Source: Elusimicrobiota bacterium
GTDB taxonomy: Bacteria > Elusimicrobiota > Elusimicrobia > Elusimicrobiales > UBA9959
Reading direction: 5' to 3'
Length of the DNA: 64,000 bases
Assembly: GCA_019135865.1 (NCBI GenBank)
Contig: JAGVVD010000038.1
Location: 364-64,363, forward strand
Positions 2,766 to 64,000 of this stretch are shown here, piece by piece (position 1 is the stretch's first letter; every line of letters begins with the position of its first letter). The translations under genes and the position numbers were made by a program. A model generated the notes under the pieces. That model saw nothing but the letters and a program-made list of their open reading frames with translations. It did not search any database and was not told the DNA's origin.

Positions 2766-3368
2766 ATGAAAACGAAAGAGATGAACGTTGACGCGTTGCG
2801 GCGGGAATATTTCCCGCTGAAGGTGAAGGGCGGGTTCACGGTCAGGCCGGCGACGAGAAAAGAGGTCATGGACTTGGTGGCCGAAAAATACTCGCTCGTT
2901 TTCCCCGACCGGGGCGAGACGCCGTGTTTCCGTCTCACGCCCGAGCGCAGGAAAAAAGCGGAGAAGTTTTGGGAGAATTACCACGTTCTCCATCATGAAT
3001 ACTTCCTGTTCCTCGACCCAAAGGGAAAGCCCGTCGGCTGGCATATGGGCGAGGCGGAGGATTTTCAGACCTTCTATATGCGCAATACCGGCATACTGCC
3101 GGAATACCAGGACCGCGGGATATACAGCGCTTTCCTGAAGGCTTTCGTCGCCTATCTGGGGGAGCTGGGTTATGAGCGCATTTCCAGCCAGCATAAGCCA
3201 ACGAACAAGTCGATACTGATCCTTAAGCTGAAGCAGGGCTTCGTCATCGGCGGACTGGAGATGACCGAGACCTGGGGCTCGCTGGTCAAGATGGTTAAGC
3301 TTATCCCCGGCGACCGGCGCGAGTCCTTCTACCGCCAGTTCGGCGATATGGTCCACCTGGAGGAATAG
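2766..3368 (+). CDS. GNAT family N-acetyltransferase
   Basis: Acetyl-CoA motif A-like ILPEYQDRGIYSAFLKAFVAYL. SD ggag sits 5 nt upstream of the ATG. Confidence 0.8.
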   Translation: MKTKEMNVDALRREYFPLKVKGGFTVRPATRKEVMDLVAEKYSLVFPDRGETPCFRLTPERRKKAEKFWENYHVLHHEYFLFLDPKGKPVGWHMGEAEDFQTFYMRNTGILPEYQDRGIYSAFLKAFVAYLGELGYERISSQHKPTNKSILILKLKQGFVIGGLEMTETWGSLVKMVKLIPGDRRESFYRQFGDMVHLEE

Positions 3369-3375
3369 CCGCGAG

Positions 3376-11451: not shown

Positions 11452-11513
11452 TCCCCTCCTCAGGTTGTGTAATATTGCTTTGTCGAAGAGCAATCACACA
11501 CCCAAGGAGGGGA
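11452..11513 (+). promoter_or_regulatory. long imperfect hairpin sequestering the transposase RBS
   Basis: tcccctcct(11452-11460) pairs with aggagggga(11505-11513, containing the SD). There is an inner stem attgct/agcaat. Confidence 0.5.
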
Positions 11514-42843: not shown

Positions 42844-43917
42844 TCACCTTTCCATGCAGCTGATGCACGGGTCTATGGTCAGTATTATGGTCGGCACGTC
42901 GGCCAGCTCCGTGCCCTTGAGGAGTTTCACCACGGCCGGCACGTTGGCGAAGGTGGGCGTGCGCAGGCGGAAGCGCTCCAGCATGCGGGTGCCGTTGCCG
43001 CGCACGTAGTAAATGGCCTCGCCGCGCGGCTGCTCGGCGCGGTAGAAGGCCTCGCCGTTGGGCGCGGAGGCGATCTTGGCGGCTATGCCGTCCGCGGCCA
43101 TGGCCCCCGCGGCCTGGGCTATGATGTCTATGGACTGGAAGATCTCCTTCACGCGCACGCGGCAGCGGGCGTGGCAGTCGCCGTCCTTTTCCACCGCGGC
43201 CTCCCACCGCAGGCCCTCGTACATGGGGTTGCCGAGGCGCTGGTCCGAGACCACGCCGCTGGCGCGCAGCATGGGGCCCACTACGCCTAGCTCCCGGGCC
43301 TCGGCTTCGGGCAGCACGGCGAGCCCGGAGAGGCGGTGCTTAACGGTATAGTCGTTGAGGAAAATGTCGGTGATCTCTTTGAGCTGCGGCTTCATGGCCG
43401 TGAGCCGGGAGGAAATGCGCGAGAGCGTAGCGTCCTCGATATCCTTCCTCATGCCGCCGACCTTCACGATATTGAAGATCACGCGGCCGCCGGTGGTCTC
43501 CTCGAACATGTCCAGCACTTCCTCGCGCAGGCGCCAGGTCTGCATGAACAGGTTCTCGAAGCCGAAGGCGTCGGCCGCGAGCCCCAGCCACAGCAGGTGG
43601 CTGTGCACGCGGGAGAGCTCGGCCAGGATCACGCGCAGCTGCCGCGCGCGGCGGGGCACCGGCAGGGCGAGGACGCTTTCCACCGCCGAACTGTAGCCCA
43701 TGCCGTGCATGAAGCTGCAGATGCCGCAGACCCGCTCGGCGATCATCACGTATTCTTCGAAATCGCGCTTGGGGGCCAGCAGCTCGAGGCCGCGGTGGAT
43801 GAAGCCTATGGAAGGGACGGCGTCGATCACGCGCTCATTGTCGAGCACCAGGTCGAAGCTCAGCGGCTCCGGCAGCACCGGGTGCTGGGGGCCCAGCGGG
43901 ACGATGGTGGTCTTCAT
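42844..43917 (-). CDS. echE: group 4 [NiFe] hydrogenase large subunit (NuoD-like)
   Basis: N-terminal RVCGICSFMH and C-terminal DPCISCMER Ni-Fe ligands. 357 aa with no C-terminal extension. Confidence 0.9.
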   Translation of the reverse strand: MKTTIVPLGPQHPVLPEPLSFDLVLDNERVIDAVPSIGFIHRGLELLAPKRDFEEYVMIAERVCGICSFMHGMGYSSAVESVLALPVPRRARQLRVILAELSRVHSHLLWLGLAADAFGFENLFMQTWRLREEVLDMFEETTGGRVIFNIVKVGGMRKDIEDATLSRISSRLTAMKPQLKEITDIFLNDYTVKHRLSGLAVLPEAEARELGVVGPMLRASGVVSDQRLGNPMYEGLRWEAAVEKDGDCHARCRVRVKEIFQSIDIIAQAAGAMAADGIAAKIASAPNGEAFYRAEQPRGEAIYYVRGNGTRMLERFRLRTPTFANVPAVVKLLKGTELADVPTIILTIDPCISCMER

Positions 43918-44309
43918 GAGTTCGCCCCCGGGACCGGCTTCTTCACCGGCGCCGCCACGGCGAACGGCACGCGCACCGCGGTCTTGTAGAGGGTCCCCTT
44001 GAAATCCAGCACCAGCCCCTCGAACTCCACGCCGAACTGCTCGCGGATCTCGTTCTCGTAGAGGAAGGCGGAGAAATAATCCCCGGAGACGCTGGGCACT
44101 TTCTGCCCGGGCGCGGCGGTCAGGCGCAGGTGGCTCAGCGCGCCGTCCTTGTCGAAAGAATAGGTCAGCTCCACGGCCGGGGCCTCGCCCGCGGCGGCCA
44201 CCGGCAGCGCCACGGCCGAGATGACCGCCAGGCGCGAGCCCGCGGCGCGCAGGCCCTTCACGCGCTCCGGCAGCGCGGCGGCTTCTATGAGCGCGATATC
44301 CATGGTCAT
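43914..44309 (-). CDS. echD: Ech hydrogenase subunit D (NuoC/30-kDa-like)
   Basis: FLYENEIREQFGVEFEG motif and its position between the small and large subunits. Confidence 0.75.
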   Translation of the reverse strand: MTMDIALIEAAALPERVKGLRAAGSRLAVISAVALPVAAAGEAPAVELTYSFDKDGALSHLRLTAAPGQKVPSVSGDYFSAFLYENEIREQFGVEFEGLVLDFKGTLYKTAVRVPFAVAAPVKKPVPGANS

Positions 44310-44737
44310 TTCTTCGCCTCCGCGGCGGCCCGCTTCTGCTCCAGCACGCCGAGGGCGCGGACTATGCCGTCTATGATGGCCTCGGGCCTGGCGGCGCAGC
44401 CCGGCACGTACACGTCCACGGGCAGCACCTTGTCGGCGCCGCCCTTTACGTTGTAGCAGTCGGCGAACACGCCGCCCGAGGTGGCGCAGATGCCCACGGC
44501 CAGCACCACCTTGGGCTCGGGCATCTGGGCGTAAAGATTGCGCACCACCTCTTCGTTCTGGTGGTTGATGGAGCCGGTCAGCAGCAGCAGGTCGGCGTGG
44601 CGCGGGTTGCCGGTGTTGATCACGCCGAAGCGCTCCGCGTCGTAAAGCGGGGTAAGGCAGGCCAGCACCTCTATGTCGCAGCCGTTGCAGCTGGAGCCGT
44701 CGTAGTGAAGCAGCCAGGGCGACTTTTTAAGCGACAT
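44306..44737 (-). CDS. echC: group 4 [NiFe] hydrogenase small subunit (NuoB-like)
   Basis: SCNGCDIE...GICATSGG...VPGCAARPE. Confidence 0.9.
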   Translation of the reverse strand: MSLKKSPWLLHYDGSSCNGCDIEVLACLTPLYDAERFGVINTGNPRHADLLLLTGSINHQNEEVVRNLYAQMPEPKVVLAVGICATSGGVFADCYNVKGGADKVLPVDVYVPGCAARPEAIIDGIVRALGVLEQKRAAAEAKK

Positions 44738-45594
44738 CAGTTGCCCCCCAGCGCGTACAGGGCCAGCAGGTTGCCGCCGGCCAGCAGCAGCGTTATGGTC
44801 CAGGTGGAGGACAGCGCCAGCTGCCAGCGCACGCGGGCGTTGGTGTTATCGGCCAGCACTTCCAGGAAATAGGTCAGGGCCACGGCGGCCAGCGCCAGCG
44901 GGGCGCTGAAAGCGAAGAACAGGTACACCAGCCCCAGCAGCAGGATATTCTCGTACCAGTGGGTGATCTCGATGAGCGCCAGAGTGCGGCCGCCGAGGTC
45001 GGTGGTGATGCCCTTCACTATCTCCTGGTGGGCGTGGTGGGAATAGGACAGGTCGAAGGGCGACTTGCGCAGCTTCATCGTGAGCACGTAGAAAAGGCAC
45101 AGGAACACGCCCGGCAACTGCTTTATCAGCGGCGCGCCGGAAGCGGCCACGGCGTGGAAGTTCAGCGAACCGGAGACCTTGTAGATGGCCGCCGCGGCTA
45201 TCAGCAGCGCGGGCTCGGCGGCGAGGATGATGATCAGCTCGCGCTCGGCGCCCACGAAGCTGTACGGCGAAGCGGAGGAGAAGGCCGCCGCCACGAGGAA
45301 CAGCGCCGCCACGGTGAAGACGAAGATGACCAGCAGGATATCGCCCCCGCCGAAGAACAGCGCGCCGGCCAGGGCCATGAAGAGCAGGTGGCACAGCGCC
45401 AGCGGGTACTGCAGGCTGTTCACCTCCACGTCGCCCTTGGAGAAGAGCTTGGCCACGTCGTAGAAGGGCTGCAGCAGCGGCGGGCCCACGCGGCGCTGCA
45501 TGCGGGCCGAGACTATGCGGTCGGCGCCGGCCAGCAGGCCGCCGGCCAGCGGGGCCAGCAGCGCGTAGGCGAGAGCGGGCATCAGTTTTTCCAT
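44737..45594 (-). CDS. echB: Ech hydrogenase membrane subunit B (NuoH-like)
   Basis: 285 aa, 8-TM-like, with RRVGPPLLQPFYDVAKLF. Confidence 0.85.
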   Translation of the reverse strand: MEKLMPALAYALLAPLAGGLLAGADRIVSARMQRRVGPPLLQPFYDVAKLFSKGDVEVNSLQYPLALCHLLFMALAGALFFGGGDILLVIFVFTVAALFLVAAAFSSASPYSFVGAERELIIILAAEPALLIAAAAIYKVSGSLNFHAVAASGAPLIKQLPGVFLCLFYVLTMKLRKSPFDLSYSHHAHQEIVKGITTDLGGRTLALIEITHWYENILLLGLVYLFFAFSAPLALAAVALTYFLEVLADNTNARVRWQLALSSTWTITLLLAGGNLLALYALGGN

Positions 45595-47513
45595 ATTACC
45601 CCCGCCGCCAGCATGAAGGCCACCACGGCCCCCAGGAAATAGTTGGAATAGCGCAGGATGGCTCCCGAGTCAAAGAAGCCGTCGAGATAGTAGTTCTTCA
45701 GCGTGATCTCGCGCCAGGAGCCCATGGCCCCACCCACCAGCAGGTGCGAGTCCATCTGCCGGCCGCAGACGTAGGTGTCGGAGAGGCGGTAGGCCGCGCG
45801 CCGGTGCAGCGCCCAGGCCAGCGCCGGCAGCGCCACCAGCAGGAAAAGCAGCATGGTTATGACGCCGTAATTGAAGTTCCCCAGCCCGCCGGGGGCGCCG
45901 TACTGGGCCAGCAGGTAAGGCTCCACCAGCCAGGCAGACAGCAGCGGCAGGCCCGCGCAGACGGCGAAGCTCAGCAGCGCGTGGGCCCACTCGGCCGTCC
46001 ACTCGTCGTTGCCTATGGTGGCCTCGCGCTTCTTTTCCACGCCGGGCTGGTCGCGCATCGAGAGGATCTTGCCCAGCAGTTTGCTCCAGTAGAACACCGT
46101 GGCGGCGCTGCCGTAGGCGATCATGATCACCAGCGCCGCGCCGAAAGCCGACGGGACCTTGAGGAAGGCCTCTATGGCGGCCCACTTGCTGACCACCACG
46201 CCGAAGGGCGCTATGAACATGCCGGCGATGCCCGCCACGAACAGCAGCGCGGTGACCGGCATCTTGACGATGAGGTTGTCGTAGTTCTCCATGTCCTTGG
46301 TGTAGAAGCGGTTCTCCACCGTGCCCACCACCAGGAACAGCAGGGACTTGGAAACGGCGTGGAACACTATCAGCACCAGGCCTATCCAGACCGCGGCTGG
46401 GCCGCCCACGCCGCCGCAGGCCACTATCAGGCCCAGGTTGGCCACGGTCGAGTAGGCCAGCACCTTCTTGACGTTGGGTTCGGTGATATTGACGATGGAG
46501 GCGGCCAGGAAGGTGCCGGCGCCTATCAGCGCGACGGCGTTGCCCACGGCCGTGCCCGCGATAACGGGCGCCATCTTGAGCACCAGGAAGACGCCCGCCT
46601 TGACCATGGTGCTGGAGTGCAGCAGCGCGGAGGTGGGCGTGGGGGCCACCATGGCGCCCAGCAGCCACGACGAGAACGGGAACTGCGCGGCCTTGGTGAT
46701 GGCCGCGTAGCAGAGCAGCGCGGCCGGCAGCAGCGCGGCCCCGCGCAGGGCCAGCATCTTGTCCAGTTCCACTATGCCGCTGTTCCGGGCCAGCCAGATC
46801 AGCGCCAGCGAGAAAGCCAGCCCGCCGGTAAGGTTGATGTTCAGGGCGAGGAAAGCGTTGTTGACGGCCTCCCTGGTGCGGGTGTGGCCTATCAGCAGGA
46901 AGGAGCAGACCGTCGTGACCTCCCAGAAGAACAGCATGTGGCCCAGGTGGTTGGAGAAGACCACGCCGAACATGGCCGAGAGGAAGACGAAAAGCAGGAA
47001 GAAGAAGAAGTTGCGCCGGTCGGGCAGGCGCGGGTAGTGGCGGTGGAAATCGCGCATGTAGCCCAGCGCGTAGACGCAGATCAGCGGCCCCAGCACGCCG
47101 ATCACCAGCGCCATCAGCAGCGAGAACTTGTCGGCGTAAAAAGCGTTGTCCGCGGCCACGCCCGGCGCGCAGGCCAGGTCGAAATACAGCGTGAGGCCGG
47201 CCTGGGCCAGCGCCAGCGCCCCGGCCAGCGGGCGCTTATACTTGAAGGCGTAGCGCAGCATGACGCCGGCCAGCCCCAGGCTGGCGGCGAGGAAAAGGGT
47301 CTCCAGGCCGTGGATCTCGCCGCGGAAATAATAGGCCCCTGCGCCGCCCGCGGCGGCGCAGGCCAGCGCCCCGGCCCCGGTGAGCAGCGCGCCCGCGCGC
47401 ACCAGCAGATTGCGCGTACGCAGGCCGGGAGCCGCCAGGAGCGCCAGCGCCAAGGCCAGCGGGCAGAGTATAAGGGAAGCTACCAGGTAAGACACAGCCG
47501 TATCAGTGTGCAT
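45582..47513 (-). CDS. echA: Ech hydrogenase membrane subunit A (NuoL/antiporter-like)
   Basis: 643 aa, polytopic, with a proton-pump motif region (WLLGAMVAPTPTSALLHSSTMVKAGV). Confidence 0.85.
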   Translation of the reverse strand: MHTDTAVSYLVASLILCPLALALALLAAPGLRTRNLLVRAGALLTGAGALACAAAGGAGAYYFRGEIHGLETLFLAASLGLAGVMLRYAFKYKRPLAGALALAQAGLTLYFDLACAPGVAADNAFYADKFSLLMALVIGVLGPLICVYALGYMRDFHRHYPRLPDRRNFFFFLLFVFLSAMFGVVFSNHLGHMLFFWEVTTVCSFLLIGHTRTREAVNNAFLALNINLTGGLAFSLALIWLARNSGIVELDKMLALRGAALLPAALLCYAAITKAAQFPFSSWLLGAMVAPTPTSALLHSSTMVKAGVFLVLKMAPVIAGTAVGNAVALIGAGTFLAASIVNITEPNVKKVLAYSTVANLGLIVACGGVGGPAAVWIGLVLIVFHAVSKSLLFLVVGTVENRFYTKDMENYDNLIVKMPVTALLFVAGIAGMFIAPFGVVVSKWAAIEAFLKVPSAFGAALVIMIAYGSAATVFYWSKLLGKILSMRDQPGVEKKREATIGNDEWTAEWAHALLSFAVCAGLPLLSAWLVEPYLLAQYGAPGGLGNFNYGVITMLLFLLVALPALAWALHRRAAYRLSDTYVCGRQMDSHLLVGGAMGSWREITLKNYYLDGFFDSGAILRYSNYFLGAVVAFMLAAGVIWKN

Positions 47514-47589: not shown

Positions 47590-48003
47590 TCAGGAAGGGC
47601 GCTTGCCCTTTTTCTCTTTGGCCGCTTTGAGGGCGGCCTCGATTTCCTCGGCCAACTTGGTCGGGGGGATGGGTTTGGCGAGGAATTTGCGGACCGGGAG
47701 CCAGTCTGCGTCCTTGTCCTCGTCGAACTTCCAGTCGCTTCTCATGTGTTCCTGCACTCCGGTCAGCATCAGCACCGGCATGTCGGGGAACTTTATGCTC
47801 ACGTCCCGGGCCAGCTCGAAGCCGGAAGTGAACTCCTCCATCATTACGTCCATCACGAGCAGGTCCGGCCGCCGCTTCTCCAGCAGCTTCCAGGCGTCGT
47901 CGCCGGTATACGCGACGGAAACCTCGTGTCCTTTGGCTTCAAGCACCAGTTTATTGGCGTCCACCAAACCCGCGTCGTCGTCTATCAGAAGTATATGGGC
48001 CAT
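47590..48003 (-). CDS. single-domain response regulator
   Basis: MAHILLIDDD...LLVMDVMM...FLAKP. Confidence 0.9.
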   Translation of the reverse strand: MAHILLIDDDAGLVDANKLVLEAKGHEVSVAYTGDDAWKLLEKRRPDLLVMDVMMEEFTSGFELARDVSIKFPDMPVLMLTGVQEHMRSDWKFDEDKDADWLPVRKFLAKPIPPTKLAEEIEAALKAAKEKKGKRPS

Positions 48004-48049: not shown

Positions 48050-49201
48050 TTATGCGGCCTTAAGGTCAATCGAGCCCGGCGCCGGAAGGGAGAGGGTGAA
48101 GCGCGACCCTTTCCCGGGCTCGCTCTCCACTTCTATGTCCCCGCCCGCCTGCAAGGCGAGCTTCCGCGCTATAGCCAGGCCCAGTCCGCTGCCCGGTATG
48201 CCGATGGTCGCGCGGTTCTTGATACGGACGAATTCGCTGAACAGGCGCGCCGCGTCCTTTTTTTCCATGCCGATGCCCGTATCCTCTACGGTGATGCGCA
48301 CTTTCCCTCCGTCCGCGGCCGCGGAGGCGCGCACCAGGCCGCCGTCCCGGTTGTATTTCACGGCGTTGGTGAAAAGGTTGTTGAGTATCATTCCGACTTC
48401 GGAGGGGTCCGCCTCCACGAGCAGACCGGCCCCTTCCGTTTCCAGTTTTATCCCGCGCCGCGCCGCTTCGGCGGCCACGCCCTCGGCGGCGGCGGCCAGC
48501 GCGCCGGCCACCTCAAGCGCGGCGGGAGCGCGCCTGAACTGGCCCGACTCGATGCGCGTCAGGTCCAGCAGGTCCGCTATCATCTTGCGCATCCCGTCGG
48601 TGCGCTCCGAGCATTTGGCGATGATGCCGGCGTAGGCCGTCATGTCCTTGCCGAGCGTCATGTCCCGCATCACGTCCAAGTAGGCGTCGAAGGTGTTGAT
48701 GGGGGCTTTGAGCTCATGCGCCAGTACCGAGATGAACTGGAAGCGGATCCGCTTCTTCTCCTGCGCCAGCAGGCGCGCGTGCCGGCTGACGATGAGGTGG
48801 TGGGCCGCTTTCTTTACGGTGTAGCGCACCTCCTCCGGGGTACAGGGCTTGGCCAGGAAATCGAAGGAGCCGAGGCGGGTCGCCTGTATGGCAGTCTCGA
48901 TGTTGGCGTAGGCCGTCATGATTATGACGGCCGTCTCCCGCTTCTCTTCCGAGAAGCGGCCTAGAATGTCCATGCCGCTGATCCCCGGCAGTTTGTAGTC
49001 CAGGAGCACCAGGTCGGCGGGGTCCGTTTCCATCCGGGTGAGGAGTTCCTCCCCGGTGGAGACCAGGCTCACTTCGAGTTCCGCCTCCACGCCGAGGGTG
49101 CGGACCTCGGGCCTGAAGCCGTCGAGGATGATCTTTATGGCCGAGCACATCTTGGGCTCGTCGTCGCAGACTATCACCTTGAGTTTTTCGCTGACGGCCA
49201 T
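48050..49201 (-). CDS. hybrid histidine kinase (REC-HisKA-HATPase_c)
   Basis: VIVCDDE...LVLLDYKLPG, H-box SVLAHELKAPI, and DTGIGM...GSGLGLAI. Confidence 0.9.
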   Translation of the reverse strand: MAVSEKLKVIVCDDEPKMCSAIKIILDGFRPEVRTLGVEAELEVSLVSTGEELLTRMETDPADLVLLDYKLPGISGMDILGRFSEEKRETAVIIMTAYANIETAIQATRLGSFDFLAKPCTPEEVRYTVKKAAHHLIVSRHARLLAQEKKRIRFQFISVLAHELKAPINTFDAYLDVMRDMTLGKDMTAYAGIIAKCSERTDGMRKMIADLLDLTRIESGQFRRAPAALEVAGALAAAAEGVAAEAARRGIKLETEGAGLLVEADPSEVGMILNNLFTNAVKYNRDGGLVRASAAADGGKVRITVEDTGIGMEKKDAARLFSEFVRIKNRATIGIPGSGLGLAIARKLALQAGGDIEVESEPGKGSRFTLSLPAPGSIDLKAA

Positions 49202-49202
49202 T

Positions 49203-51179
49203 TCATTCGCCCCCTCTGGGTAGAGTGATGGTGAACACGGTGCCGGTGGGGCCGGCCGCGGGATCGCTGTTGGAGGCCACCTTCAGCTCGCCCTTGTGCA
49301 TCCTCACTATACCGTAGGTTATCGCCAGGCCCAGGCCGGTGCCCTTGCCGATCTGCTTGGTGGTGAAGAAAGGCGTGAACACCTTGGGAAGGTTCTCGGC
49401 CGAAATGCCCGAACCGGTGTCGGCCACCTCTATGCGGACGGCGGACTCATCGTCGAGCAGACGCACGTCCACCCGCCCGCCGCCCGGCATCGCGTCGGCC
49501 GCGTTGACCACCAGGTTGGTCAGGGCCTGTATGAGGCGGTCCCTGTCCACTTCGATCTCGGGGTCCCGCATCCGGTTCTCCAGGACCGCGCTGATCCCCG
49601 GCGGCAGGGTCAAGGTCTTGAGAAAAGCCCCGACCAGTTCCGGAAGGCCGGTCTTCTCCGGGACCACGCGGTTCTGCCGCGCGAAATTCAGAAGCCCGGA
49701 AACTATCTTCTTGCAGCGGTCCGATTGCTCCACGATGTTCTGGAGCCACTCCTTCATGGAGGGGTCGGTGCAGCGCTCCAGCATGATATGGGAGTACATC
49801 AGCACTATTCCCAACGGGTTGTTGACCTCGTGGGCGATACCCGCGGCGAGCTGGCCTATGCTGGAAAGCCGTTCGGAATCGGCCAGTTGCTGGCGCGTCT
49901 CGGAGAGCTCCCGGTAGAATTTGCCCACCTTCGCGAGCGAATCGTTGAGCTGGTCGATGGTATAGGGCAGGCACATCCGCTCTTCGGCGAAACCGCGGCA
50001 GATGGCGGAGGCGTGGGCGCGGCAGGTGTCGTAGCCGCAGGCGCCGCAGTTAAGCTCGTCCTCCGCGCTGTTCTTGCCCATTTCGGAAAGCACTTCTTTC
50101 AGCGCGGTCTCGGACACCTCCGGCTGCGGCTGGGGGTCCGGCTTGTAGACGCGGCTGAGGTCCAGGTCCCTGAAACTCTCCACGTCCCGATACCACTTGC
50201 CGGTATCCAGGCCGGCCATGGTCACCCGCGCGCAGCGGCTGACCTGGAAGCGGCGATTGAACAGCGGGATGTCCTTGTCTATGCCCGGCCCCATGATGCA
50301 GCCCATGCAACTGGTCACTTCCAGCAGCCGGGTGTTGAGCTGCTCGTTGCGGAATTCCCTTATGGCCTCCACGAACTCCGTTCGTCCCTCGGCGGAGACC
50401 GCATTGCCGGTCAGCAGGTCCTCCGGGATGCCGGCCGACTGCAGCAACCCGCGTCCTATGGGGTACAGGCGGCCCTTGCCGGCCCTGGGCGGATCGAAAT
50501 CGGACGGGACTATGTTCGAAGTTCCGGTTTTTTCCCCGAAGATACGGTCCAGTTCGCTGAAGGTCAGCGCGGCGTCCACGTCCATATCGAGGGCTTCGAG
50601 CTTTTTGGCGACGCAGGGGCCGATGAAGACGACTCGCAGCGCGGCACCGTGCAGCCGGCGGGCCACCCTGGCGGCTGCCGCCATGGGGGAGACGACCGGC
50701 GCCAGGTTCGGCACCAGGTCAGGGAAATACTTGGTTATATGAGAGACCACCGCCGGACAGGTGGCGGCGATCAGGCGCGTGGTGGCGGGGTTGGTGAGCA
50801 GCTCCTGGTAGCGTTGCGACACCAGGTCGGCGCCGAAAGCCACTTCGTGCACGTACTTGAAGCCGAGCGCGCGCAGCGTGCCCACCAGGCGCTGCTGATC
50901 CCATTCGGGGAACTGGCAGGGCCAGCTGGGGGCCACCAGGGCCGCCGTTTCCGCCCCGGAAGCCAGCAGGTCCAGAACCTCGCGGGTGGAATCGTAGAAC
51001 CGCTTGGCGCCGCGGCCGCAGACCCGCACGCAGTTGCCGCAACCTATGCAGAGTTCGCTCATGACCTCGGCGCGGCCCTTGTGGATGCGTATGGCCTTGG
51101 CCGGGCATTCGCGCACGCAGGTATAGCAGGCCCGGCATTTGTCGGCGTCGGTCCAGATGAGCTTGTCGGTCTTCTTCAT
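49203..51179 (-). CDS. sensor histidine kinase with N-terminal 2x[4Fe-4S] ferredoxin, [FeFe]-hydrogenase-like (H-cluster-type) domain and a CxxC Fe-S motif
   Basis: CRACYTCVRECP and CIGCGNCVRVC. H-cluster-like motifs AATCPAV, GPCVAKKLE and EVTSCMGCIMGPG. Also CGACGYDTCRAHASAIC, H-box IAHEVNNPL and DTGSGI...GTGLGLAI. Confidence 0.85.
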   Translation of the reverse strand: MKKTDKLIWTDADKCRACYTCVRECPAKAIRIHKGRAEVMSELCIGCGNCVRVCGRGAKRFYDSTREVLDLLASGAETAALVAPSWPCQFPEWDQQRLVGTLRALGFKYVHEVAFGADLVSQRYQELLTNPATTRLIAATCPAVVSHITKYFPDLVPNLAPVVSPMAAAARVARRLHGAALRVVFIGPCVAKKLEALDMDVDAALTFSELDRIFGEKTGTSNIVPSDFDPPRAGKGRLYPIGRGLLQSAGIPEDLLTGNAVSAEGRTEFVEAIREFRNEQLNTRLLEVTSCMGCIMGPGIDKDIPLFNRRFQVSRCARVTMAGLDTGKWYRDVESFRDLDLSRVYKPDPQPQPEVSETALKEVLSEMGKNSAEDELNCGACGYDTCRAHASAICRGFAEERMCLPYTIDQLNDSLAKVGKFYRELSETRQQLADSERLSSIGQLAAGIAHEVNNPLGIVLMYSHIMLERCTDPSMKEWLQNIVEQSDRCKKIVSGLLNFARQNRVVPEKTGLPELVGAFLKTLTLPPGISAVLENRMRDPEIEVDRDRLIQALTNLVVNAADAMPGGGRVDVRLLDDESAVRIEVADTGSGISAENLPKVFTPFFTTKQIGKGTGLGLAITYGIVRMHKGELKVASNSDPAAGPTGTVFTITLPRGGE

Positions 51180-51203: not shown

Positions 51204-51596
51204 TCAGCGCCGGCGGTCTTTAAGCAGGGATTCTATCTCGCAGAGCAAAACGGTCGGGGAGACCGGCTTCTCCATGAAGCGGTGCACCGGCAGCCAGGAC
51301 TTGTCCTCGTCGAAAGACTGCTTCCAGGCGTCGTCCATGTACTCGTAGACGCCGGTCAGCATGATCATCGGCAGGTCCGGGAAGGAACCACCGATATGCC
51401 TGGCCAGTTCGAAACCGGAGTCGAAATCCTCCATCATAACGTCAAGGACCACTATGTCGGGCTTGTCCTTTGCCAGGAACTCGCGGGCCTCGGCGCCGCT
51501 GTGCGCGTGCGAGACCTTGTGCTTGTTGGCCGAGAGGACTATCGTGTTGGCTTCCAGGAGTTGCGTGTCGTCGTCTACCAGCAGAACATGGGCCAT
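51204..51596 (-). CDS. single-domain response regulator (paralog of 47590..48003)
   Basis: MAHVLLVDDD...IVVLDVMM...FMEKP. Confidence 0.9.
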   Translation of the reverse strand: MAHVLLVDDDTQLLEANTIVLSANKHKVSHAHSGAEAREFLAKDKPDIVVLDVMMEDFDSGFELARHIGGSFPDLPMIMLTGVYEYMDDAWKQSFDEDKSWLPVHRFMEKPVSPTVLLCEIESLLKDRRR

Positions 51597-57679: not shown

Positions 57680-58279
57680 TCAGCGATACCGCCGCAGGAG
57701 CAGCAGCGCCGCCCTGTAGACGGCGTAGGAAGCCAGAAGGAAGAGCCCCAGGTTGAAAGCGGGGCGGGCGCGGGGTATGGCGAGCGATATGACGATCACC
57801 GCGCAGGAGACCGGCAGCAGCAGGTAGTCGAAGAAACCCCTTACCAGAGGGCCGGGCCTGTAGCCGGCGGCGCGGGCGGGCCTGTCGGCAGCCAGCAGGG
57901 AGAGGGTGTAGATCTTTTTCAGCAGGGGCCCGGCGTCCGGGTCCTTTTCGGCCCGGGCTTTGAATTCCCGCGCGAGTTCGTCCAGGCGGCCCGCTTTGAA
58001 GCCGGCCGTTATGAGCCTGTCCGCCGCTTCCGGGTCCAGGGTCCCGCCGGAGCCGGAGCGCCTGGCCGCCTCCATCGCCAGCACATAGAACTGGGTCTCG
58101 CCGGCGTCGCCCCTGGCCATGAAAGCCCTGTAAAGGCCCAGCCGGGCCGCGGCCGAGGAGGGGGAGAGCTTCAGAACGGCGTTGAAATTGCTTATCGCGG
58201 CGGCGGCGTCGCCTTCGCCCAGGCAGCGCCTGCCCGCCTCCAGCAGTTTCTCTTCGTCCGCCGCGCCCTCGCCGGTCAT
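57680..58279 (-). CDS. TPR-like protein with C-terminal TM helices
   Basis: MTGEGAADEEKLLEAGRRCLGEGD.... The start overlaps the stop of the upstream pilin-like gene. Confidence 0.55.
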   Translation of the reverse strand: MTGEGAADEEKLLEAGRRCLGEGDAAAAISNFNAVLKLSPSSAAARLGLYRAFMARGDAGETQFYVLAMEAARRSGSGGTLDPEAADRLITAGFKAGRLDELAREFKARAEKDPDAGPLLKKIYTLSLLAADRPARAAGYRPGPLVRGFFDYLLLPVSCAVIVISLAIPRARPAFNLGLFLLASYAVYRAALLLLRRYR

Positions 58280-59565
58280 CTCATGTGCCAGGTCACCAGT
58301 ACCGGGCGCTCCGGCAGGCCGGGCGGGGGATTGGTGTTGAGGCCGGTGTCGTAGGTCATCGTGGTGCCGCCGCCGAAACCGCTGGTGGTTATCGGCTTGT
58401 TCCTGGTCCCGTATATGTAAAGCCGTTTCGAGGAGCCGCCGGAGGCGCTGATATTGGCCGAACTGCGGTTGAAGATGACGGCGCAGACGGTGAGGTCCTG
58501 ATCGGTGCCGGAGGTCTTCCCCGTCAGCGTTATGCCGTTGGAAGCTACCAGGGCCATGGAACTGCCGAGCGCGGCGGAGGTGGTGGTCCCGCCGGTGAGC
58601 GGATCGTAATAGAACAGGTCCGAATCGGCCGAGGACTGCCCTACCGTTATCTTTCCCTTGGAGCCGCTGGTATTGGTGGTGGCCACCGTGACCCGGCCCC
58701 GTACCGTGCCGTAGACGGTGAGATTGACGTTGTCGCCCAGCACTATCATCCCGCTCTCCACCACCGGCACGGTTATCGTGGTCCCGATTATGCTGAAGGT
58801 GGAGGAAGAGGGATGGGCGTTGAACCGCAGCGTCCTGTCGGACCCGGATATCCGGTAGGCGTAGTTCGCCTCGTAGTAATCCTCGCGCATCTCCGGATAG
58901 ATCATGTCGCTGGGATAGAAGTTGTAGGCGGTGCCGTCCACGGCGGGAGAGCCGCTCAGCGAGCCGCCGTAGTAAAGGTCGCCGTCGACCCTGACATTGC
59001 CGCCGCTGACGGAGAGATTGCCGCCGACGATCAGCGGCCCGCCTGCGAAGCGCACATTGTCGCCGGTTATGGAGAGGTTGCCTGTTATCCACCATTTGCC
59101 GTAATAGGTGACGTTGTCGGCGCTGATCGTGAAGGCCCCGTTGATCAGCGTGCCGTAGTCGGTCAGGTCCGAGATGAACTGCACGGCGGCGGAAAGTCTC
59201 CTGCCGGCCAGCGGCGCGTCCGGGTCCTTCCCGTACTTCCCCCTGGCCTCTATGTAAAGCGCGTGCGCGGCGGGATAGGCCTCGTAATCCACCTCGGTGA
59301 AGCCGGCCTCGTAAAAGGAGCGGTTCCTGTCGAGCGACGCCGCGTCGTAATGCCCGGCGAAATAATCCTGGGAGAACTGCCGCATGTAGTCGATCATGGC
59401 CTGCGAAGCCAGCGCCGCCGCTTCGCTCTGCTGCCGCTCGCGCATGGAATGGCGCAGGGCCACCCCCGCGTTCCAGGAAAGATAGACGAAGGTCGGCAGC
59501 AGGAAGAGGGACAGCAGTATGACCATCACCAGCCCCATGCCGGGCCGCGAGCGGAGGGGCTTCAT
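58276..59565 (-). CDS. PilX/GspK-like minor pseudopilin with a beta-helix-like repeat region
   Basis: MKPLRSRPGMGLVMVILLSLFLL (no Glu+5). Repeats GNLSITGDNVRFAGGPLIVGGNLSVSGGNVRVDGDLYYGG. Confidence 0.6.
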   Translation of the reverse strand: MKPLRSRPGMGLVMVILLSLFLLPTFVYLSWNAGVALRHSMRERQQSEAAALASQAMIDYMRQFSQDYFAGHYDAASLDRNRSFYEAGFTEVDYEAYPAAHALYIEARGKYGKDPDAPLAGRRLSAAVQFISDLTDYGTLINGAFTISADNVTYYGKWWITGNLSITGDNVRFAGGPLIVGGNLSVSGGNVRVDGDLYYGGSLSGSPAVDGTAYNFYPSDMIYPEMREDYYEANYAYRISGSDRTLRFNAHPSSSTFSIIGTTITVPVVESGMIVLGDNVNLTVYGTVRGRVTVATTNTSGSKGKITVGQSSADSDLFYYDPLTGGTTTSAALGSSMALVASNGITLTGKTSGTDQDLTVCAVIFNRSSANISASGGSSKRLYIYGTRNKPITTSGFGGGTTMTYDTGLNTNPPPGLPERPVLVTWHMR

Positions 59566-60404
59566 CTCCTCCTCCTCAGCGGCAGCAGCGGCGGCGAGAT
59601 ATGCGTGCGCAGGAAGGCGTCCGCCCTGCCGTCGGAATTGTAGTCGCACTCGGCGTAGAGCTCTATGGTCGTGACGTACTTGAGCTCGTCCGGGGTGTTT
59701 ATGGACCCGCTGCGGTTGCCGTGCCCGCCCTGGGCCGGCCGGACCCAGTCGATCTCGCGCGCGGTTATCATGCCGTCGCCCTCCCCCGTGTCGTTGGTGG
59801 AGGGCATGCCGTCGTTGCCCAGGTCTATATTGCGGCCCAGGTCCTCCCGCTTGGAGCCCTGCGGGATGAAGGAGAAGGAACTGATGTTCACGCCCAGCCG
59901 CTTCACGGCCGCGGCTCCGCCGTTGTATACGGACGAAAGGTACACCGCGCGCTCGGCCGGGACATAATAGAAGGACCTCATGCAGTCGCGGTTCCCGTCG
60001 TTGTCGTCGTCGTCGTCCTCCAGGTCGTAACCCACCCGCCACTGCTGGCTGGAGGGGAGGGAGAAGCGCTGGGCCGCGTCCCCGTCGTCGTCGGTGTCCT
60101 TCAGGTCGGGGATGCCGTCGCCGTCGCGGTCGCCGGCCGGCGTGTACCAGGGGGCCTCCTCCGAGCCGCAGAGGATGGTGACGGAGGAGGCCGAGACGCC
60201 GGTGAAGGCTACGGCGGGGTGCAGGCCGTCCGAGAGCCGGGAAAATAGCAGCCGCAGCTCGGCCGAGGCCTGTACCTTATGTTCGGCGGTCTTGGCGCTC
60301 TTCATGAAGCCGCCGAAATAGCCGGCGAAAGCGACGATGGCGATGGACATCACCGCCAGGTAGACCATCAGCTCGACAAGGGTGACGCCCTTTCTCAGGC
60401 TCAT
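59562..60404 (-). CDS. type IV pilin-like pseudopilin with thrombospondin-type-3-like Ca-binding Asp repeats
   Basis: MSLRKG|VTLVELMVYLAV prepilin motif. DRDGDGIPDLKDTDDDGD and DDDDDNDGNRD. Confidence 0.75.
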   Translation of the reverse strand: MSLRKGVTLVELMVYLAVMSIAIVAFAGYFGGFMKSAKTAEHKVQASAELRLLFSRLSDGLHPAVAFTGVSASSVTILCGSEEAPWYTPAGDRDGDGIPDLKDTDDDGDAAQRFSLPSSQQWRVGYDLEDDDDDNDGNRDCMRSFYYVPAERAVYLSSVYNGGAAAVKRLGVNISSFSFIPQGSKREDLGRNIDLGNDGMPSTNDTGEGDGMITAREIDWVRPAQGGHGNRSGSINTPDELKYVTTIELYAECDYNSDGRADAFLRTHISPPLLPLRRRR

Positions 60405-60405
60405 A

Positions 60406-62634
60406 TCAGGGCCAGGCGACCGTGAAATTCCAGGACTGCACGGAGGTCTTCTTTTCCGGCGGATCGTCCGCCCAGTGGCTGACCCTGACCTCCACGGTAT
60501 GAGGGGAACCGGGCGCGAAAGCGGCGGAAGGCAGCCAGGACAGTTTCCCGCTTTCCGGGTCCCAGTACGAGGCGATGGTCCCGGAGGAGACGATCGGCTC
60601 CCCGTCCAGCCGCAGCTCTATGCTGTAAGGGTCTATGCCCGACTGATTGTCGAAGAGCCGGCAGCCTATCTCCGGCAGCGGGTCCGCATTGGCTCCCTGC
60701 GGGACCATATTGGCGATAGAAGGCGCGGAAGGGTCCGGGTCCGAGACGGCTACCGTGAAGGTCCAGGTGGAGATGGTCTTGTAATAGGCCCGGTCGCCGC
60801 CCTCCGCCGTTACCGTGTAGGAGGAGCCGTTGGCGAGCTTGTTGGGCAGGCCTCCGGCGCCGCGCCAGGAGATGCGGCCGCTGGCCGCGTCGTAATCGAA
60901 GGGTACCGCGGTCCCGTTCACCCGCAAGGAGACAGTCTCGGGACATATCCCGGAGACGGCCGCGCCGGCCGAAAGCGGCTGGTCCGACAGTACGGCGCCG
61001 ACATAGGGCATCAGGTCCGGCACCGCCCCGGAGGGGGCCTGGCTGGAGACCGCCGGTGGATCGAGGTCCAGCACGACCCGCCGCTGGGCGAACGGGGAAT
61101 AATAGGAGTCCTTGGAGGCCTTGGCGTAGAGCAGGTTCTCTCCCTCCGCCAGGACCGAGGTGACGGCCAGCGACTGGAAGTCGAAAGCGCCCGAGGCGTC
61201 CGCCGGACGCGAGTCGGAGGGGGAGGCCATGGAATTGACGTAAAAACCGACGCTGGCCAGCGGCGCCGTCTCTCCCGCGAGGCGCAACGGGTAGCCGGCG
61301 TCGGCCCTGTAAGCGATGACCTCCGCGGGGTAGGATTTTGCGATGCCGGCCGCGAAGGCCGCCGCCCGTCCGGCTTCCATCAGGTCGTAAAGATAGGTGT
61401 CGTTGGCCGGCTCTTCCACGAGCATCTTGAGCTCGGCGCCGCTGGACCGGCTCTCTATGCCGCTGAGCATTTCCAGGGAGATCAGCTCGGTCCTGGAATG
61501 CAGCCGGCGGCCGCGCTTGTAGAGACGCAGCGTGACCTCTTTCAGGTTGGTGTCCGGCAGTTCGCTGACGGTCCGGCCCGGCGAGCCGGTGACATAGGTG
61601 TCGTAATAGTCGGCGTCGGCGTTGGCCTTGTAATAGCGTATCGAGGCGTCGTAGTCGTCGACGAGGTTAGCGTCGGCGTCGGTGAAATCGCGCAGGTCGC
61701 CGGTCAGCCCGTCGCCGGTCACGTCGGAAACGTCCCTGACCTTGAACTTCAGTTCGACGGTCCAGCGGTCCACGGAGTAGCGCGAAGCGATCGCCGTGAT
61801 CTCGTCGAGCAGGCCGCGGTAGGGATAGGAGGGCCGCTGCTGGGTCACGGGACCGTAGGTGCCGGAGAGGCCGTAGTTAGGCTGCGCCGAATCGTAGGCG
61901 AAGAGATAGTGGTACTCTATGCTCTTGAGCTTCTCGAAGATGGAATCCGTCAGCCGCGTGGAGGCGGTGTTCTCCAGGGTGCGCGTCATCATCACCTGCA
62001 GGTAGCGGTGCATATAGGCGACCGAAAGGCTCAGCACCGCCAGCAGGAAGATGGAGATCATGGCCTCCACGAGGCCGAAGCCCGCCCGGAGCCGCGCGCC
62101 CTGCGGCCGGCGCGCGCCGGCCGGGAGCCGGCCGCCCGAAGCCAGGGCGTAGAAGACGAGCAGGGAGAGCGGCAGGACCAGGGCCGAATGCGCGACCAGG
62201 CTCAACAGGGCCTCCCCGTGGACCCGTCTTATGACGGCCGGTCCCAGTTCGGGATAGGAAGCGGAAGCGAAGAGCAGCGCCCCCGAGTAAAATCCCAGGA
62301 AAAGGGCGAAGAGGGCGAAAACGGCGCCGGAAACGGCCTTTTCGGCCGGGGTGCGTTCCGAAGCCCGCGTCCCGGCGAAGGAGCCTCCGGCCAGCAGGTA
62401 GAAGAAAAGCAGAGAAAAGGGCAGGAGGATGGAGGAGAGCAGGAGCAGGCCGGAACGCGAGCCGGACTGCAGCGCGGCGGCCAGTTCCAGGGTGAGCACG
62501 GACGAGGTCCCGGGCAGGAAGACCGCGGCCCCGGCGTAGAAGCCGACCAGGACGGCGAAAAGGGAGAGCACGAAGCCGGCCGCGGCGTAGACCGCGGGAG
62601 AGGAAAGACCGGCCCGGGGAAGGGCTTTTTTCAT
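60406..62634 (-). CDS. large pseudopilin-like protein: about 185-aa 4-TM N-terminal region, internal prepilin motif, Ig-like C-terminal repeats
   Basis: RLRAG|FGLVEAMISIFLLAVL at residues 181-200. Upstream are two copies of a 2-TM unit. The C-terminus has SGRISWRG...YTVTA and SGKLSWLP...HTVEV. Confidence 0.65.
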   Translation of the reverse strand: MKKALPRAGLSSPAVYAAAGFVLSLFAVLVGFYAGAAVFLPGTSSVLTLELAAALQSGSRSGLLLLSSILLPFSLLFFYLLAGGSFAGTRASERTPAEKAVSGAVFALFALFLGFYSGALLFASASYPELGPAVIRRVHGEALLSLVAHSALVLPLSLLVFYALASGGRLPAGARRPQGARLRAGFGLVEAMISIFLLAVLSLSVAYMHRYLQVMMTRTLENTASTRLTDSIFEKLKSIEYHYLFAYDSAQPNYGLSGTYGPVTQQRPSYPYRGLLDEITAIASRYSVDRWTVELKFKVRDVSDVTGDGLTGDLRDFTDADANLVDDYDASIRYYKANADADYYDTYVTGSPGRTVSELPDTNLKEVTLRLYKRGRRLHSRTELISLEMLSGIESRSSGAELKMLVEEPANDTYLYDLMEAGRAAAFAAGIAKSYPAEVIAYRADAGYPLRLAGETAPLASVGFYVNSMASPSDSRPADASGAFDFQSLAVTSVLAEGENLLYAKASKDSYYSPFAQRRVVLDLDPPAVSSQAPSGAVPDLMPYVGAVLSDQPLSAGAAVSGICPETVSLRVNGTAVPFDYDAASGRISWRGAGGLPNKLANGSSYTVTAEGGDRAYYKTISTWTFTVAVSDPDPSAPSIANMVPQGANADPLPEIGCRLFDNQSGIDPYSIELRLDGEPIVSSGTIASYWDPESGKLSWLPSAAFAPGSPHTVEVRVSHWADDPPEKKTSVQSWNFTVAWP

Positions 62635-62715
62635 AATGGCGACCCGCCTGTCATAGTATAGCAGAAGGACGGGGTTTTTTCAGCACCCCCCTTCGCGGCC
62701 CGGCGGCCCGCGCCG

Positions 62716-64000
62716 TCAGCGGTAATACTTGTCCGGGTTGTGGATGAAATAGAAGTCAAAAGGCTCCAGCCGCGGCAGGTTCACGTATCTGCGGCCGGAT
62801 TCGTCCGTTCGCTCCTCCAGGCGCGGAAAGGACATCTTGTGCCCGCTGGCGGCCGGTCCGAAGTCGGGGTTCTTTACGAAGCCCGTCTCCTCGATGCGGT
62901 CGACCAGGTGGTCCACCCATTTCAGGGCGACCGCCTTGTCGGCGAATTCCTCCCAGTTGCCGTCGGAACTGTTCTCGTACATGCGCTTGCGGAAGGCGTC
63001 CGTGGAGATCCCCATTTTTTTCGCGACCGGGTCGAGTATGCGCCGCTCCCAGTCCTTCGCCTTTTCCAGCTGCTCCTTCAGCTGCGTCATGTTGCCCCAG
63101 TTCACGGTGGACATCTGGTGATGGAGTATTATGGCGTTGGGATAGGCGAACGACTTTTTAGCCAGCGTCGTTATGCCGGCGGCCATGCTGGCGGCGTAGG
63201 ATTTCACTACGACGTAGACGGGGGCCTTGCTGGATTCCATGGCCTTGAGTATGCGGTAGCCGGACATCACCGAACCGCCCGGGGAACTGTCGATGACCAG
63301 GAAGATGGGGGCGGTGCTGATATTGTTGAAGTAATGGATCCTGTCGGTGATATAGTCCGCGCTCACGGAGTAGACCGGGCCGTTGAGCGGTATGCGCCGG
63401 TCGCTTATGGTCAGCACGCCTTTGCTGAAAGGCTGCGGGTCGTATACCGGTTCGGTGTTGGATTCCTTCTTCCATTCCTCTTTCTTCGCGCGCAGGGAGA
63501 GGTCGGAGTTGAGCTTGTCCATGCGGCTCTCGAGCAGCAGCTTCTCGAACTTGAGCTTGCGCTCCTTGAGGTCCATGCGCTTCATCTCCAGCTCGATGGA
63601 CATCTTCTCCGCCGAGTCGGTTATCATGGCCTTCTTCTCCTGTTCGGAGAGCAGTTCGTTCTCGGCCTTGAGCTTGAGTATGGAGGCGGTCATGGACTCA
63701 ATCTCTTTCTTGGCCGCTTCGGCGGCCAGCTTGTTCTCCAGCGTCAGGCGCTGGAACTCGGAGTTCTTGAGCGCGGTTTCGGCTTTTATCTTTTCGTCGG
63801 CCAGCCTGTTCCCGGAGGAGAGGCGCTCCAGCTCCTCCTTTATTTTACGCAGTTCGAGCCCCTGCTTTTCGGAGGCGAGCCTGCTCTCGGTGGAGAGGCG
63901 GTTTATCTCGGCCTCCATCTCCGCGATCTTGTTCTTCTGCTTCTGCAGCAGCAGTTCGTATTCGGCCTTGAGCTCGTCGCGCTCCTCGTTGAGCTGCTGG
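62716..64000 (-). CDS. ClpP-fold (S14-like) serine protease with a long N-terminal coiled coil; 5'-partial (frame stays open to the window edge)
   Basis: IFLVIDSSPGGSVMSG...KSYAASMAAG (Ser)...ILHHQM (His). Hand translation upstream of M(63918) continues as coiled coil with no stop. Confidence 0.7.
   Translation of the reverse strand, partial: QQLNEERDELKAEYELLLQKQKNKIAEMEAEINRLSTESRLASEKQGLELRKIKEELERLSSGNRLADEKIKAETALKNSEFQRLTLENKLAAEAAKKEIESMTASILKLKAENELLSEQEKKAMITDSAEKMSIELEMKRMDLKERKLKFEKLLLESRMDKLNSDLSLRAKKEEWKKESNTEPVYDPQPFSKGVLTISDRRIPLNGPVYSVSADYITDRIHYFNNISTAPIFLVIDSSPGGSVMSGYRILKAMESSKAPVYVVVKSYAASMAAGITTLAKKSFAYPNAIILHHQMSTVNWGNMTQLKEQLEKAKDWERRILDPVAKKMGISTDAFRKRMYENSSDGNWEEFADKAVALKWVDHLVDRIEETGFVKNPDFGPAASGHKMSFPRLEERTDESGRRYVNLPRLEPFDFYFIHNPDKYYR

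Follow-up and report, generated by a model that had tools for sequence, protein, structure and literature searches.

Analysis of a 64,000-nucleotide (nt) stretch of DNA from an Elusimicrobiota bacterium (NCBI GenBank assembly GCA_019135865.1, contig JAGVVD010000038.1, positions 364 to 64,363 of the forward strand; the whole stretch is referred to here as the window) revealed a pilin gene that is fused to copies of a second membrane protein gene. The open reading frame (ORF) at positions 60406-62634 of the minus strand is one open frame of 742 codons with its ATG at 62634. It encodes, in this order, two homologous units with two transmembrane (TM) helices each, a basic linker, the prepilin cleavage motif R-x-G/FGLVEA, a pilin helix, a pilin head, and three immunoglobulin (Ig)/cadherin-like domains. 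Comparison with related loci indicates that this lineage-specific gene fusion is real and that the four-TM region arose by tandem duplication of a conserved partner gene, which lies upstream of the pilin gene in relatives and was joined to it in frame. Cleavage by prepilin peptidase after Gly185, which would release the four-TM partner and the mature pilin, is the outcome we favor with some reserve.

Kyte-Doolittle windows above 1.5 defined four hydrophobic segments at approximately amino acids (aa) 14-40, 60-84, 100-124, and 142-166 and a fifth segment at aa 186-207. The two units that contain the first four segments are homologous to each other (37.5% identity over 72 aa, E = 5.7e-10 in BLASTP). 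A preliminary description of this DNA, made from its letters, had proposed a duplicated four-TM region before the motif, and both hydropathy and the BLASTP comparison of the units bear this out. The cleavage motif RLRAG/FGLVEAMISIFLLAVLSLS comprises Gly185, Phe186, and Glu190, and Pfam N_methyl (PF07963) matched aa 182-205 (E = 0.0018, 18.2 bits). The small residue at -1, the approximately 21 mainly hydrophobic residues, and the Glu at +5 that often occurs in such motifs are all present in RAG/FGLVEAMISIFLLAVLSLSVAY. The motif is not N-terminal behind a short hydrophilic leader; it is preceded by 185 residues with four hydrophobic helices, and the earlier observation of a prepilin motif with Glu+5 and a hydrophobic helix inside the ORF was thus correct. 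A six-frame scan of the window for prepilin-type motifs with a 20/21 hydrophobic tail returned only two, one in this ORF and one in the next gene downstream, and the motif is therefore not a chance match.

A search of a 5.8-billion-protein set returned 37 homologs, all from Elusimicrobia where the source names them. Four of these (97, 76, 73, and 71% identity) are 740 to 746 aa long and carry the same extension. The other 33 (49 to 65% identity) are ordinary prepilins of 541 to 570 aa, with leaders of 5 to 14 residues where the sequence is complete; MQALLPRRRPG, MHSSSRLRKG, and MKKEPG are examples of leaders found directly before FGLVEA. Some of the 33 have been named prepilin-type N-terminal cleavage/methylation domain proteins by NCBI or the Joint Genome Institute (JGI). 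The pilin part is thereby linked to recognized pilins by orthology, through the 33 homologs with an N-terminal motif, and by synteny, through a conserved four-gene cassette. F186, G187, L188, and E190 are invariant in the family alignment of 29 sequences.

The DNA around the homologs was collected as 44 loci, drawn from JGI metagenomes, assemblies, and a set of species-representative genomes. At 17 distinct unfused loci, a 2-TM protein is encoded by its own gene, about 100 codons long, which ends -11 to +16 nt from the pilin ATG. Such a gene precedes the pilin in every unfused locus with upstream DNA except the locus designated L020. No separate gene ends within about 16 nt of a pilin start in the window or in five other sequences, where an in-frame fusion takes its place. 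The stand-alone partners share the signature A-E-Y...G..V.SLFS.FLGFY..A..FA...YPEL...I..H...P...LFY.LARR (alignment A2). The conserved A-E-Y at the beginning of partner TM1 reads A-E-K in unit 2 (window aa 96-100) and A-V-Y in unit 1.

The two units of the window protein matched the stand-alone partners to different degrees in BLASTP (38 to 45% identity and E values of 1e-13 to 6e-19 for unit 2; 30 to 36% identity for unit 1). Unit 2 retains the partner signature: with its tail (aa 96-185) it resembles a complete partner of about 100 aa, with two TM helices, LGFY in TM1, the YPEL...I..H loop, and a basic C-terminal tail. Unit 1 is the more diverged copy, which has lost the YPEL...H loop signature and its His and has kept GFY and both helices (alignment A2). 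When aa 1-180 were compared by phmmer with 1.84 billion cluster representatives (E ≤ 0.001), four proteins were found, namely, the fused protein P0004 and the stand-alone proteins P0038-P0040 (98 to 104 aa), the latter matched over aa 90-169; the whole-library E value for unit 2 was 3e-10. A profile built from 19 units and partners retrieved 35 proteins of 95 to 153 aa from the 5.8-billion-protein set, all of them annotated as hypothetical and from Elusimicrobia where named, and this family size is close to one-to-one with the pilin family. None of the 35 proteins has a Pfam domain. No Pfam or NCBIfam family was found for the 2-TM unit (Pfam searched to an E value of 10 with the 19 units and partners); only scattered sub-threshold matches of the kind expected from TM composition were obtained, to FtsX in 4 of the 19 (best E = 3e-4), to DUF2273, and to Flp_Fap in one. 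Identity with Flp/Fap (type IVc) pilins was considered, as the A-E-Y of TM1 recalls their G/xxxxEY processing motif, and was rejected, since PF04964 matched 1 of 19 sequences at an E value of 0.09 and Gly occupies position -5 relative to Glu in only a few members. The 2-TM family, which is undescribed, occurs at these pilin loci only. Because the units match the stand-alone upstream proteins, the four-TM region is identified as a tandem duplicate of the partner gene.

The preliminary description had held that homologs starting near the motif, with the upstream part as a separate gene, would speak against a fused protein. This arrangement was indeed found for 33 of the 37 homologs and at the 17 unfused loci. 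It does not refute the fusion, as the unfused arrangement is the ancestral state. As to whether the four-TM region is conserved and fused in homologs, the region is fused in six distinct sequences of one clade, and a separate 2-TM gene is present at the 17 unfused loci. These six sequences, from the window, L009/L021, L001/L002, L010, L007/L011, and L008, are 71 to 97% identical, and each of them carries two units and the pilin in one frame. Neighbor-joining analysis of the pilin part grouped them in a single clade with the P0005-P0016/P0007/P0011 group as its sister, and this monophyly indicates one duplication-and-fusion history. The 2-TM duplication co-occurs with the fusion only, and no intermediates, with one unit fused or two units unfused, were present among the 44 loci. 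The fusion is confined to uncultured Elusimicrobiaceae.

An assembly or annotation error, in which an indel or a wrong start merged the upstream gene with an ordinary prepilin gene, would be easy to produce at these loci, since the two genes lie only 1 to 16 nt apart in most relatives and one indel could join them. This explanation is nevertheless hardly credible. The fused sequences originate from NCBI metagenome-assembled genomes (MAGs), JGI metagenomes, and Logan assemblies, so that the same fusion was recovered in at least seven independent assemblies, and their linkers differ in length and sequence and are all in frame. In addition, the start codon of the pilin is absent, the duplication occurs only with the fusion, the fused sequences are monophyletic, and purifying selection acts over the extension. 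The frameshift or assembly error around 62080-62130 that had been raised as a concern can be dismissed on the grounds of the independent assemblies, the in-frame linkers, and the purifying selection.

To estimate this selection, the ratio of nonsynonymous to synonymous substitution rates (dN/dS) between four fused genes was calculated by the method of Nei and Gojobori. The ratio was 0.27 to 0.38 for the extension, 0.15 to 0.19 for the pilin part, and 0.6 to 1.7 for the last 15 codons of the linker. Because of the value of 0.27 to 0.38, the extension is considered to be translated and under purifying selection. The linker evolves approximately neutrally, and its length varies among the fused loci, always by whole codons. 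When the linkers were aligned from the right, only Gly-1 (6/6), Arg-3 (6/6), and a hydrophobic residue at -4 were shared. The resulting [RK]-x-G pattern is that of most unfused leaders. That Gly-1 and Arg-3 persist where dN/dS is close to 1 is the strongest available indication of continued use of the cleavage site.

A second way of obtaining an ordinary prepilin from such a gene would be internal initiation. In this scenario, two products are made without proteolysis: the long ORF yields the four-TM protein or the fusion, and a start inside the ORF yields a prepilin with a short leader. Two loci offer codons that could serve, with in-frame ATGs at -6 and -4 in L008 (MHMRKG/F or MRKG/F) and a TTG at -10 in L010; the ATGs of L008, however, have no Shine-Dalgarno sequence upstream. 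The window ORF contains no ATG, GTG, or TTG between codon 144 (a TTG inside TM4) and codon 189, and its linker is also free of CTG and ATH codons. The preliminary description had reported no in-frame ATG or GTG between the TTG at residue 144 and the motif, a statement that holds and can be extended to TTG. Similarly, L009 has no start within 41 codons of Gly-1, and L001 and L007 have no ATG, GTG, or TTG able to yield a short leader. As four fused loci are without a usable start, internal initiation is not general for the clade, and we regard it as very improbable.

A structural model was generated with AlphaFold2 from the 29-sequence family alignment (mean predicted local distance difference test [pLDDT] score, 73.5; predicted template modeling [pTM] score, 0.47). 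The model has helices at aa 13-37, 45-81, 96-129, and 132-165 (pLDDT of approximately 55 to 80), followed by a linker at aa 169-186 that is predicted to be disordered (pLDDT below 50). The pilin part is predicted to consist of the 50-residue alpha1 helix that is a hallmark of pilins (aa 188-237) and a small beta-sheet head with strands at aa 290-299, 363-373, and 376-386, interrupted by an Asp-rich insert at aa 298-363 (pLDDT below 50). The predicted model therefore contains both elements of the pilin fold, an alpha1 helix of about 50 residues and a beta-sheet head. Residues 400-742 form three beta-sandwich domains, for which pLDDT is mostly above 90. Searching the Protein Data Bank with the whole model by Foldseek revealed, as the nearest structures for the C-terminal part, CELSR1/protocadherin and cadherin EC repeats, SiiE, RTX-adhesin tandem repeats, and SraP (E values of 4e-10 to 5e-9), and BIg repeats were also among the nearest folds for aa 400-742. 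Pfam calls no domain on the three beta-sandwich domains. The Ig-like repeats that had been suggested for the C-terminal part are supported by the predicted beta-sandwiches and by the Foldseek matches. Asp-rich, DxDxDG-like stretches occur in the insert (61546-61743, minus strand, aa 298-363) and in the next pseudopilin (59562-60404, minus strand) (DVSDVTGDGLTGDLRDFTDADANLVDDYD; DRDGDGIPDLKDTDDDGD), which suggests that both proteins may bind calcium.

The orientation of the extension in the membrane can be deduced from its charges. Lys and Arg together number 3 in the N terminus, 0 in loop 1, 3 in loop 2, 2 in loop 3 (balanced by 2 acidic residues), and 5 in the linker, and the linker GGRLPAGARRPQGARLRAG contains five Arg and no acidic residues. 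We infer that the N terminus, the middle loop, and the Arg-rich linker are all cytoplasmic and that the pilin helix runs from inside to outside, as in any prepilin. Because the number of helices is even (four) and the charges follow the positive-inside pattern, the linker and the cleavage site should lie at the cytoplasmic face of the membrane. Prepilin peptidases require a site placed in this way (PMC10191384).

Taken together, the data suggest the following model. In related Elusimicrobia, a 2-TM inner membrane protein is encoded by a separate, translationally coupled gene directly upstream of a large modular minor pilin. In the fused clade, the 2-TM gene underwent tandem duplication and was linked to the pilin gene in one frame, and the stop codon of the partner and the start codon of the pilin were lost; the sequences themselves show these steps. 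Prepilin peptidase would process the precursor between Gly185 and Phe186, probably with N-methylation of Phe186, to give a 60.3-kDa mature pilin and an 18.9-kDa four-TM protein. The latter would be a covalent pseudo-dimer of the 2-TM partner, and the duplication of a unit that otherwise stands alone suggests that the partner works as a dimer. The mature pilin and the products of genes 2 and 3 of the cassette might form an adhesin-bearing minor-pilin complex at the filament tip. The fusion would fix the stoichiometry and ensure the co-insertion of pilin and partner. As a guess, the partner may shield or escort the pilin helix with its Glu+5, or hand it over, before the pilin enters a priming or tip complex with the products of genes 2 and 3. 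In a broader sense, prepilin peptidase might here act as a polyprotein processor, which cuts at an internal site and generates two functional membrane proteins, a four-TM pseudo-dimer and an adhesin-type pilin; we give this wider interpretation an even chance.

The preliminary description had offered two readings, a cleaved giant leader and an uncleaved pilin fusion. Both are still alive, and Arg-3 and Gly-1 in the drifting linker favor cleavage. An uncleaved fusion would be a five-TM inner membrane protein, with the pilin-like helix as the fifth span and the head and the Ig-like domains in the periplasm. Such a protein could be a receptor tethered to the membrane, or else a subunit that cannot be extracted and that forms the anchor or the end of a short pseudopilus. 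This possibility gains from the short, hydrophilic nature of all known leaders, beside which a four-TM leader may not be accepted, from the sub-threshold N_methyl score, and from the four extra helices, which hold the protein firmly in the membrane. The invariance of Gly-1 and Arg-3 in an otherwise neutral linker of changing length is, however, hard to explain for an unused site. Phe+1 and Glu+5 are also kept, the pilin part has a dN/dS of 0.15 to 0.19, as in functioning orthologs, and the orthologs are ordinary cleavable prepilins within the same four-gene cassette. Finally, a subunit of 557 residues that carries three Ig-like domains is suited to a filament's tip and not to its base, and a tethered subunit cannot reach the tip; this argument follows from tip-to-base assembly, as derived from PMC10191384. 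In view of these points, we judge an uncleaved fusion to be rather unlikely.

Several observations nevertheless count against internal cleavage and the proposed partnership. The N_methyl score of 18.2 bits is below the gathering score of 21.2. The conservation of Phe+1 and Glu+5 is weak evidence, since alpha1-N is conserved family-wide anyway, and the constancy of Gly-1 and Arg-3 rests on six sequences of one clade. Locus L020, an Endomicrobia MAG that contains the most distant homolog (50% identity; 3300-4100), has no 2-TM gene upstream of the pilin, which means that the partner is specific to part of the pilin family and not universally required. A Pfam scan of 35 of the larger ORFs of the 64-kb window found no prepilin peptidase, the A24-family enzyme that removes the leaders of pilins and methylates the +1 residue. 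A peptidase is nevertheless expected, because the next gene has a canonical prepilin motif and L001 and L007 carry more N_methyl pilins nearby. Four helices might sterically hinder access to the active site of the peptidase. No prepilin peptidase is known to accept a substrate that is attached to four TM helices. The leaders described for prepilins are all short and hydrophilic (PMC10191384, PMC8179133).

The fused gene opens a cassette of four tightly packed genes. Gene 2 starts 1 nt after the stop codon of the fused gene, gene 3 overlaps gene 2 by 4 nt, and gene 4 overlaps gene 3 by 4 nt (ATGA). No Pfam match was obtained for gene 3. The order of the cassette is conserved in fused and unfused loci, with genes for proteins of 280 to 290 aa, 420 to 429 aa, and 201 to 207 aa (tetratricopeptide repeat [TPR]) in related loci. 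Upstream of the ATG at 62634, the TATACT -10-like box mentioned in the preliminary description was found again as part of an extended TGnTATACT element that is kept throughout the fused loci. The TGCTATACT/TGCTATAAT box keeps a constant distance from the ATG in 6/6 fused loci and, ahead of the 2-TM gene, in several unfused ones; boxes of a similar kind occur before that gene in many unfused loci. The position and conservation of this box fit a putative promoter that would serve the whole cassette. The coordinates of the promoter-like site, the domains of the fused protein, and the neighboring genes are listed in Table 1.

Table 1. Features of the fused pilin gene, its cassette, and the adjacent protease gene in the window
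Feature	Position	Strand	Basis
Promoter-like site: CTGAAA, 17 nt, TG-n-TATACT (extended -10, 62660-62655), 20 nt upstream of the ATG	62655..62683	-	Consensus scan
2-TM unit 1 (aa 1-95): MKKALPR basic N terminus, TM1 aa 14-40, loop, TM2 aa 60-84, basic loop	62350..62634	-	Hydropathy, BLASTP, AlphaFold2
2-TM unit 2 (aa 96-166): TM3 aa 100-124, YPELGPAVIRRVH loop, TM4 aa 142-166	62137..62349	-	BLASTP, phmmer, alignment A2
Linker (aa 167-185) GGRLPAGARRPQGARLRAG: ends in Arg-3/Gly-1 of the prepilin site	62080..62136	-	Charge count, AlphaFold2
Pilin alpha1-N (aa 186-207) FGLVEAMISIFLLAVLSLSVAY: Phe+1, Glu+5	62014..62079	-	Pfam N_methyl, family alignment
Remainder of pilin module (aa 208-399): rest of alpha1 to aa 237, beta-sheet head, Asp-rich insert aa 298-363	61438..62013	-	AlphaFold2
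Three tandem beta-sandwich (Ig/cadherin-like) domains (aa 400-742): adhesin-like C-terminal module	60409..61437	-	AlphaFold2, Foldseek
Gene 2: 280-aa pseudopilin, canonical N-terminal motif MSLRKG-VTLVELM (predicted cleavage after G)	59562..60404	-	N_methyl aa 1-25, E = 1.9e-5, above gathering score
Gene 3: 429-aa pilin-like protein, MKPLRSRPG-MGLVMVILL (predicted cleavage after G), no Glu+5, GAGGAGGAGGAG Shine-Dalgarno sequence	58276..59565	-	Sequence
Gene 4: 199-aa TPR protein, hydrophobic C-terminal segments	57680..58279	-	Pfam TPR_19, E = 3.5e-6
400-aa protein: coiled-coil-like N-terminal half of ~170 residues and ClpP/SppA-like serine protease	62716-63918	-	Pfam CLP_protease, E = 6.6e-18

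The flanks of the cassette are not conserved among the loci. The ClpP/SppA-like protease encoded upstream in the window was considered as a processing enzyme for the fusion and is unsupported in this role, as it is not beside the fused gene in L001, L007, and L008. In L001 (5388-7954) and L007 (4008-7950), the fused pilin gene is preceded by a cluster resembling those for ribosomally synthesized and posttranslationally modified peptides (RiPPs), with radical SAM/SPASM, PqqD, and ScmC-like proteins and 45-aa ORFs. Further upstream, both loci encode modular pilins of 820 to 874 aa with N_methyl and CarboxypepD_reg domains. Neither the RiPP-like cluster nor the CarboxypepD_reg modular pilins are present in the window. 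The Pfam scan of 35 of the larger window ORFs also found no type IV filament ATPase, platform protein, or secretin.

Elsewhere in the window, the minus strand encodes a 658-aa protein (49203-51179) that combines 4Fe-4S ferredoxin domains, an [FeFe]-hydrogenase large-subunit C-terminal domain, HisKA, and HATPase_c, a combination that resembles a hydrogenase-like sensor joined to a histidine kinase. On its flanks lie a hybrid receiver-kinase and two stand-alone receivers (48050-49201, 47590-48003, and 51204-51596, minus strand). The window also contains a compact module of the complex-I-like or group-4 [NiFe]-hydrogenase type (42844-47513, minus strand), composed of the 49-kDa/NiFeSe, 30-kDa, and 20-kDa subunits, NADHdh, and Proton_antipo_M. 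Mobile-element genes are represented by an rve-family integrase (572-1546, plus strand) and an IS110-family transposase (11465-12538, plus strand).

The fused clade breaks, in a conserved and selected way, the rule that the prepilin signal is N-terminal with a short hydrophilic leader. If the fusion is cleaved, prepilin peptidases tolerate a long, membrane-embedded leader, which bears on how they recognize their substrates. The 185-residue leader would then be about an order of magnitude longer than the prepilin leaders known to us. Internal cleavage, if true, would also mean that a complete polytopic protein can serve as the leader of a class III signal peptide, and it would point to the 2-TM protein as a new accessory factor in the assembly of type IV filament minor pilins. 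Pilin-finding software that assumes an N-terminal motif would miss such fusions. The fusion is a "Rosetta stone" that connects an unannotated 2-TM family of about 35 sequence clusters with the biology of a large minor pilin of the adhesin type. Together with the duplication, which suggests a dimeric partner, it offers a concrete and testable candidate accessory component, new to type IV filament systems, in a poorly studied phylum.

A search of the literature yielded no precedent for prepilins with internal, very long, or polytopic leaders or for non-pilin substrates, in a library that was limited and therefore gives no proof of absence. Long prepilin leaders, such as those of type IVb pilins, are not known to exceed a few tens of residues. 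Canonical type IV pilins and pseudopilins (IPR012902, PF07963) share with the window protein the [RK]-x-G/F-x-L-x-E motif, the approximately 21 hydrophobic residues, the 50-residue alpha1, the beta head, and the minor-pilin operon. In the canonical proteins only a short hydrophilic leader comes before the motif, which is N-terminal (PMC10191384, PMC8179133), whereas in the window protein the motif lies behind four TM helices, from residue 185. Type IVb pilins and PilE1/PilE2 of Streptococcus sanguinis have leaders longer than the usual 5 to 10 residues and are still processed by the peptidase (PMC10191384). Those leaders are hydrophilic peptides (PMC10191384); the segment in the window protein, in contrast, spans 185 residues with four TM helices and has homologs that are encoded by a gene of their own.

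The nearest case found in the literature is the mitochondrial pseudopilin GspG of Naegleria gruberi, a component of the mitochondrial type II secretion system (miT2SS), which has a 160-residue N-terminal extension before the TM/pilin domain (PMC8134430). That extension, however, is a mitochondrial targeting sequence in a eukaryote without GspO and not a polytopic domain derived from a neighboring gene. The stand-alone 2-TM partners of Elusimicrobia (P0038-P0072) are homologous to the extension described here, with which they share the signature, the predicted N-in/C-in layout, and the position upstream of the same pilin. They differ in being single units of 95 to 153 aa encoded by separate genes, whereas the window carries a duplicated unit covalently joined to the pilin. 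The window protein also consists of a pilin module and at least one domain that is not specific to type IV filaments, the definition of a modular pilin given by Raynaud et al. in 2021 (PMC8179133). In PilB and PilC of S. sanguinis (PMC8179133), non-pilin modules are likewise grafted onto a pilin module, as are the Ig/cadherin-like domains of the window protein. The extra modules described in modular pilins are C-terminal, whereas the window protein has, in addition, an N-terminal, membrane-embedded graft upstream of the cleavage site.

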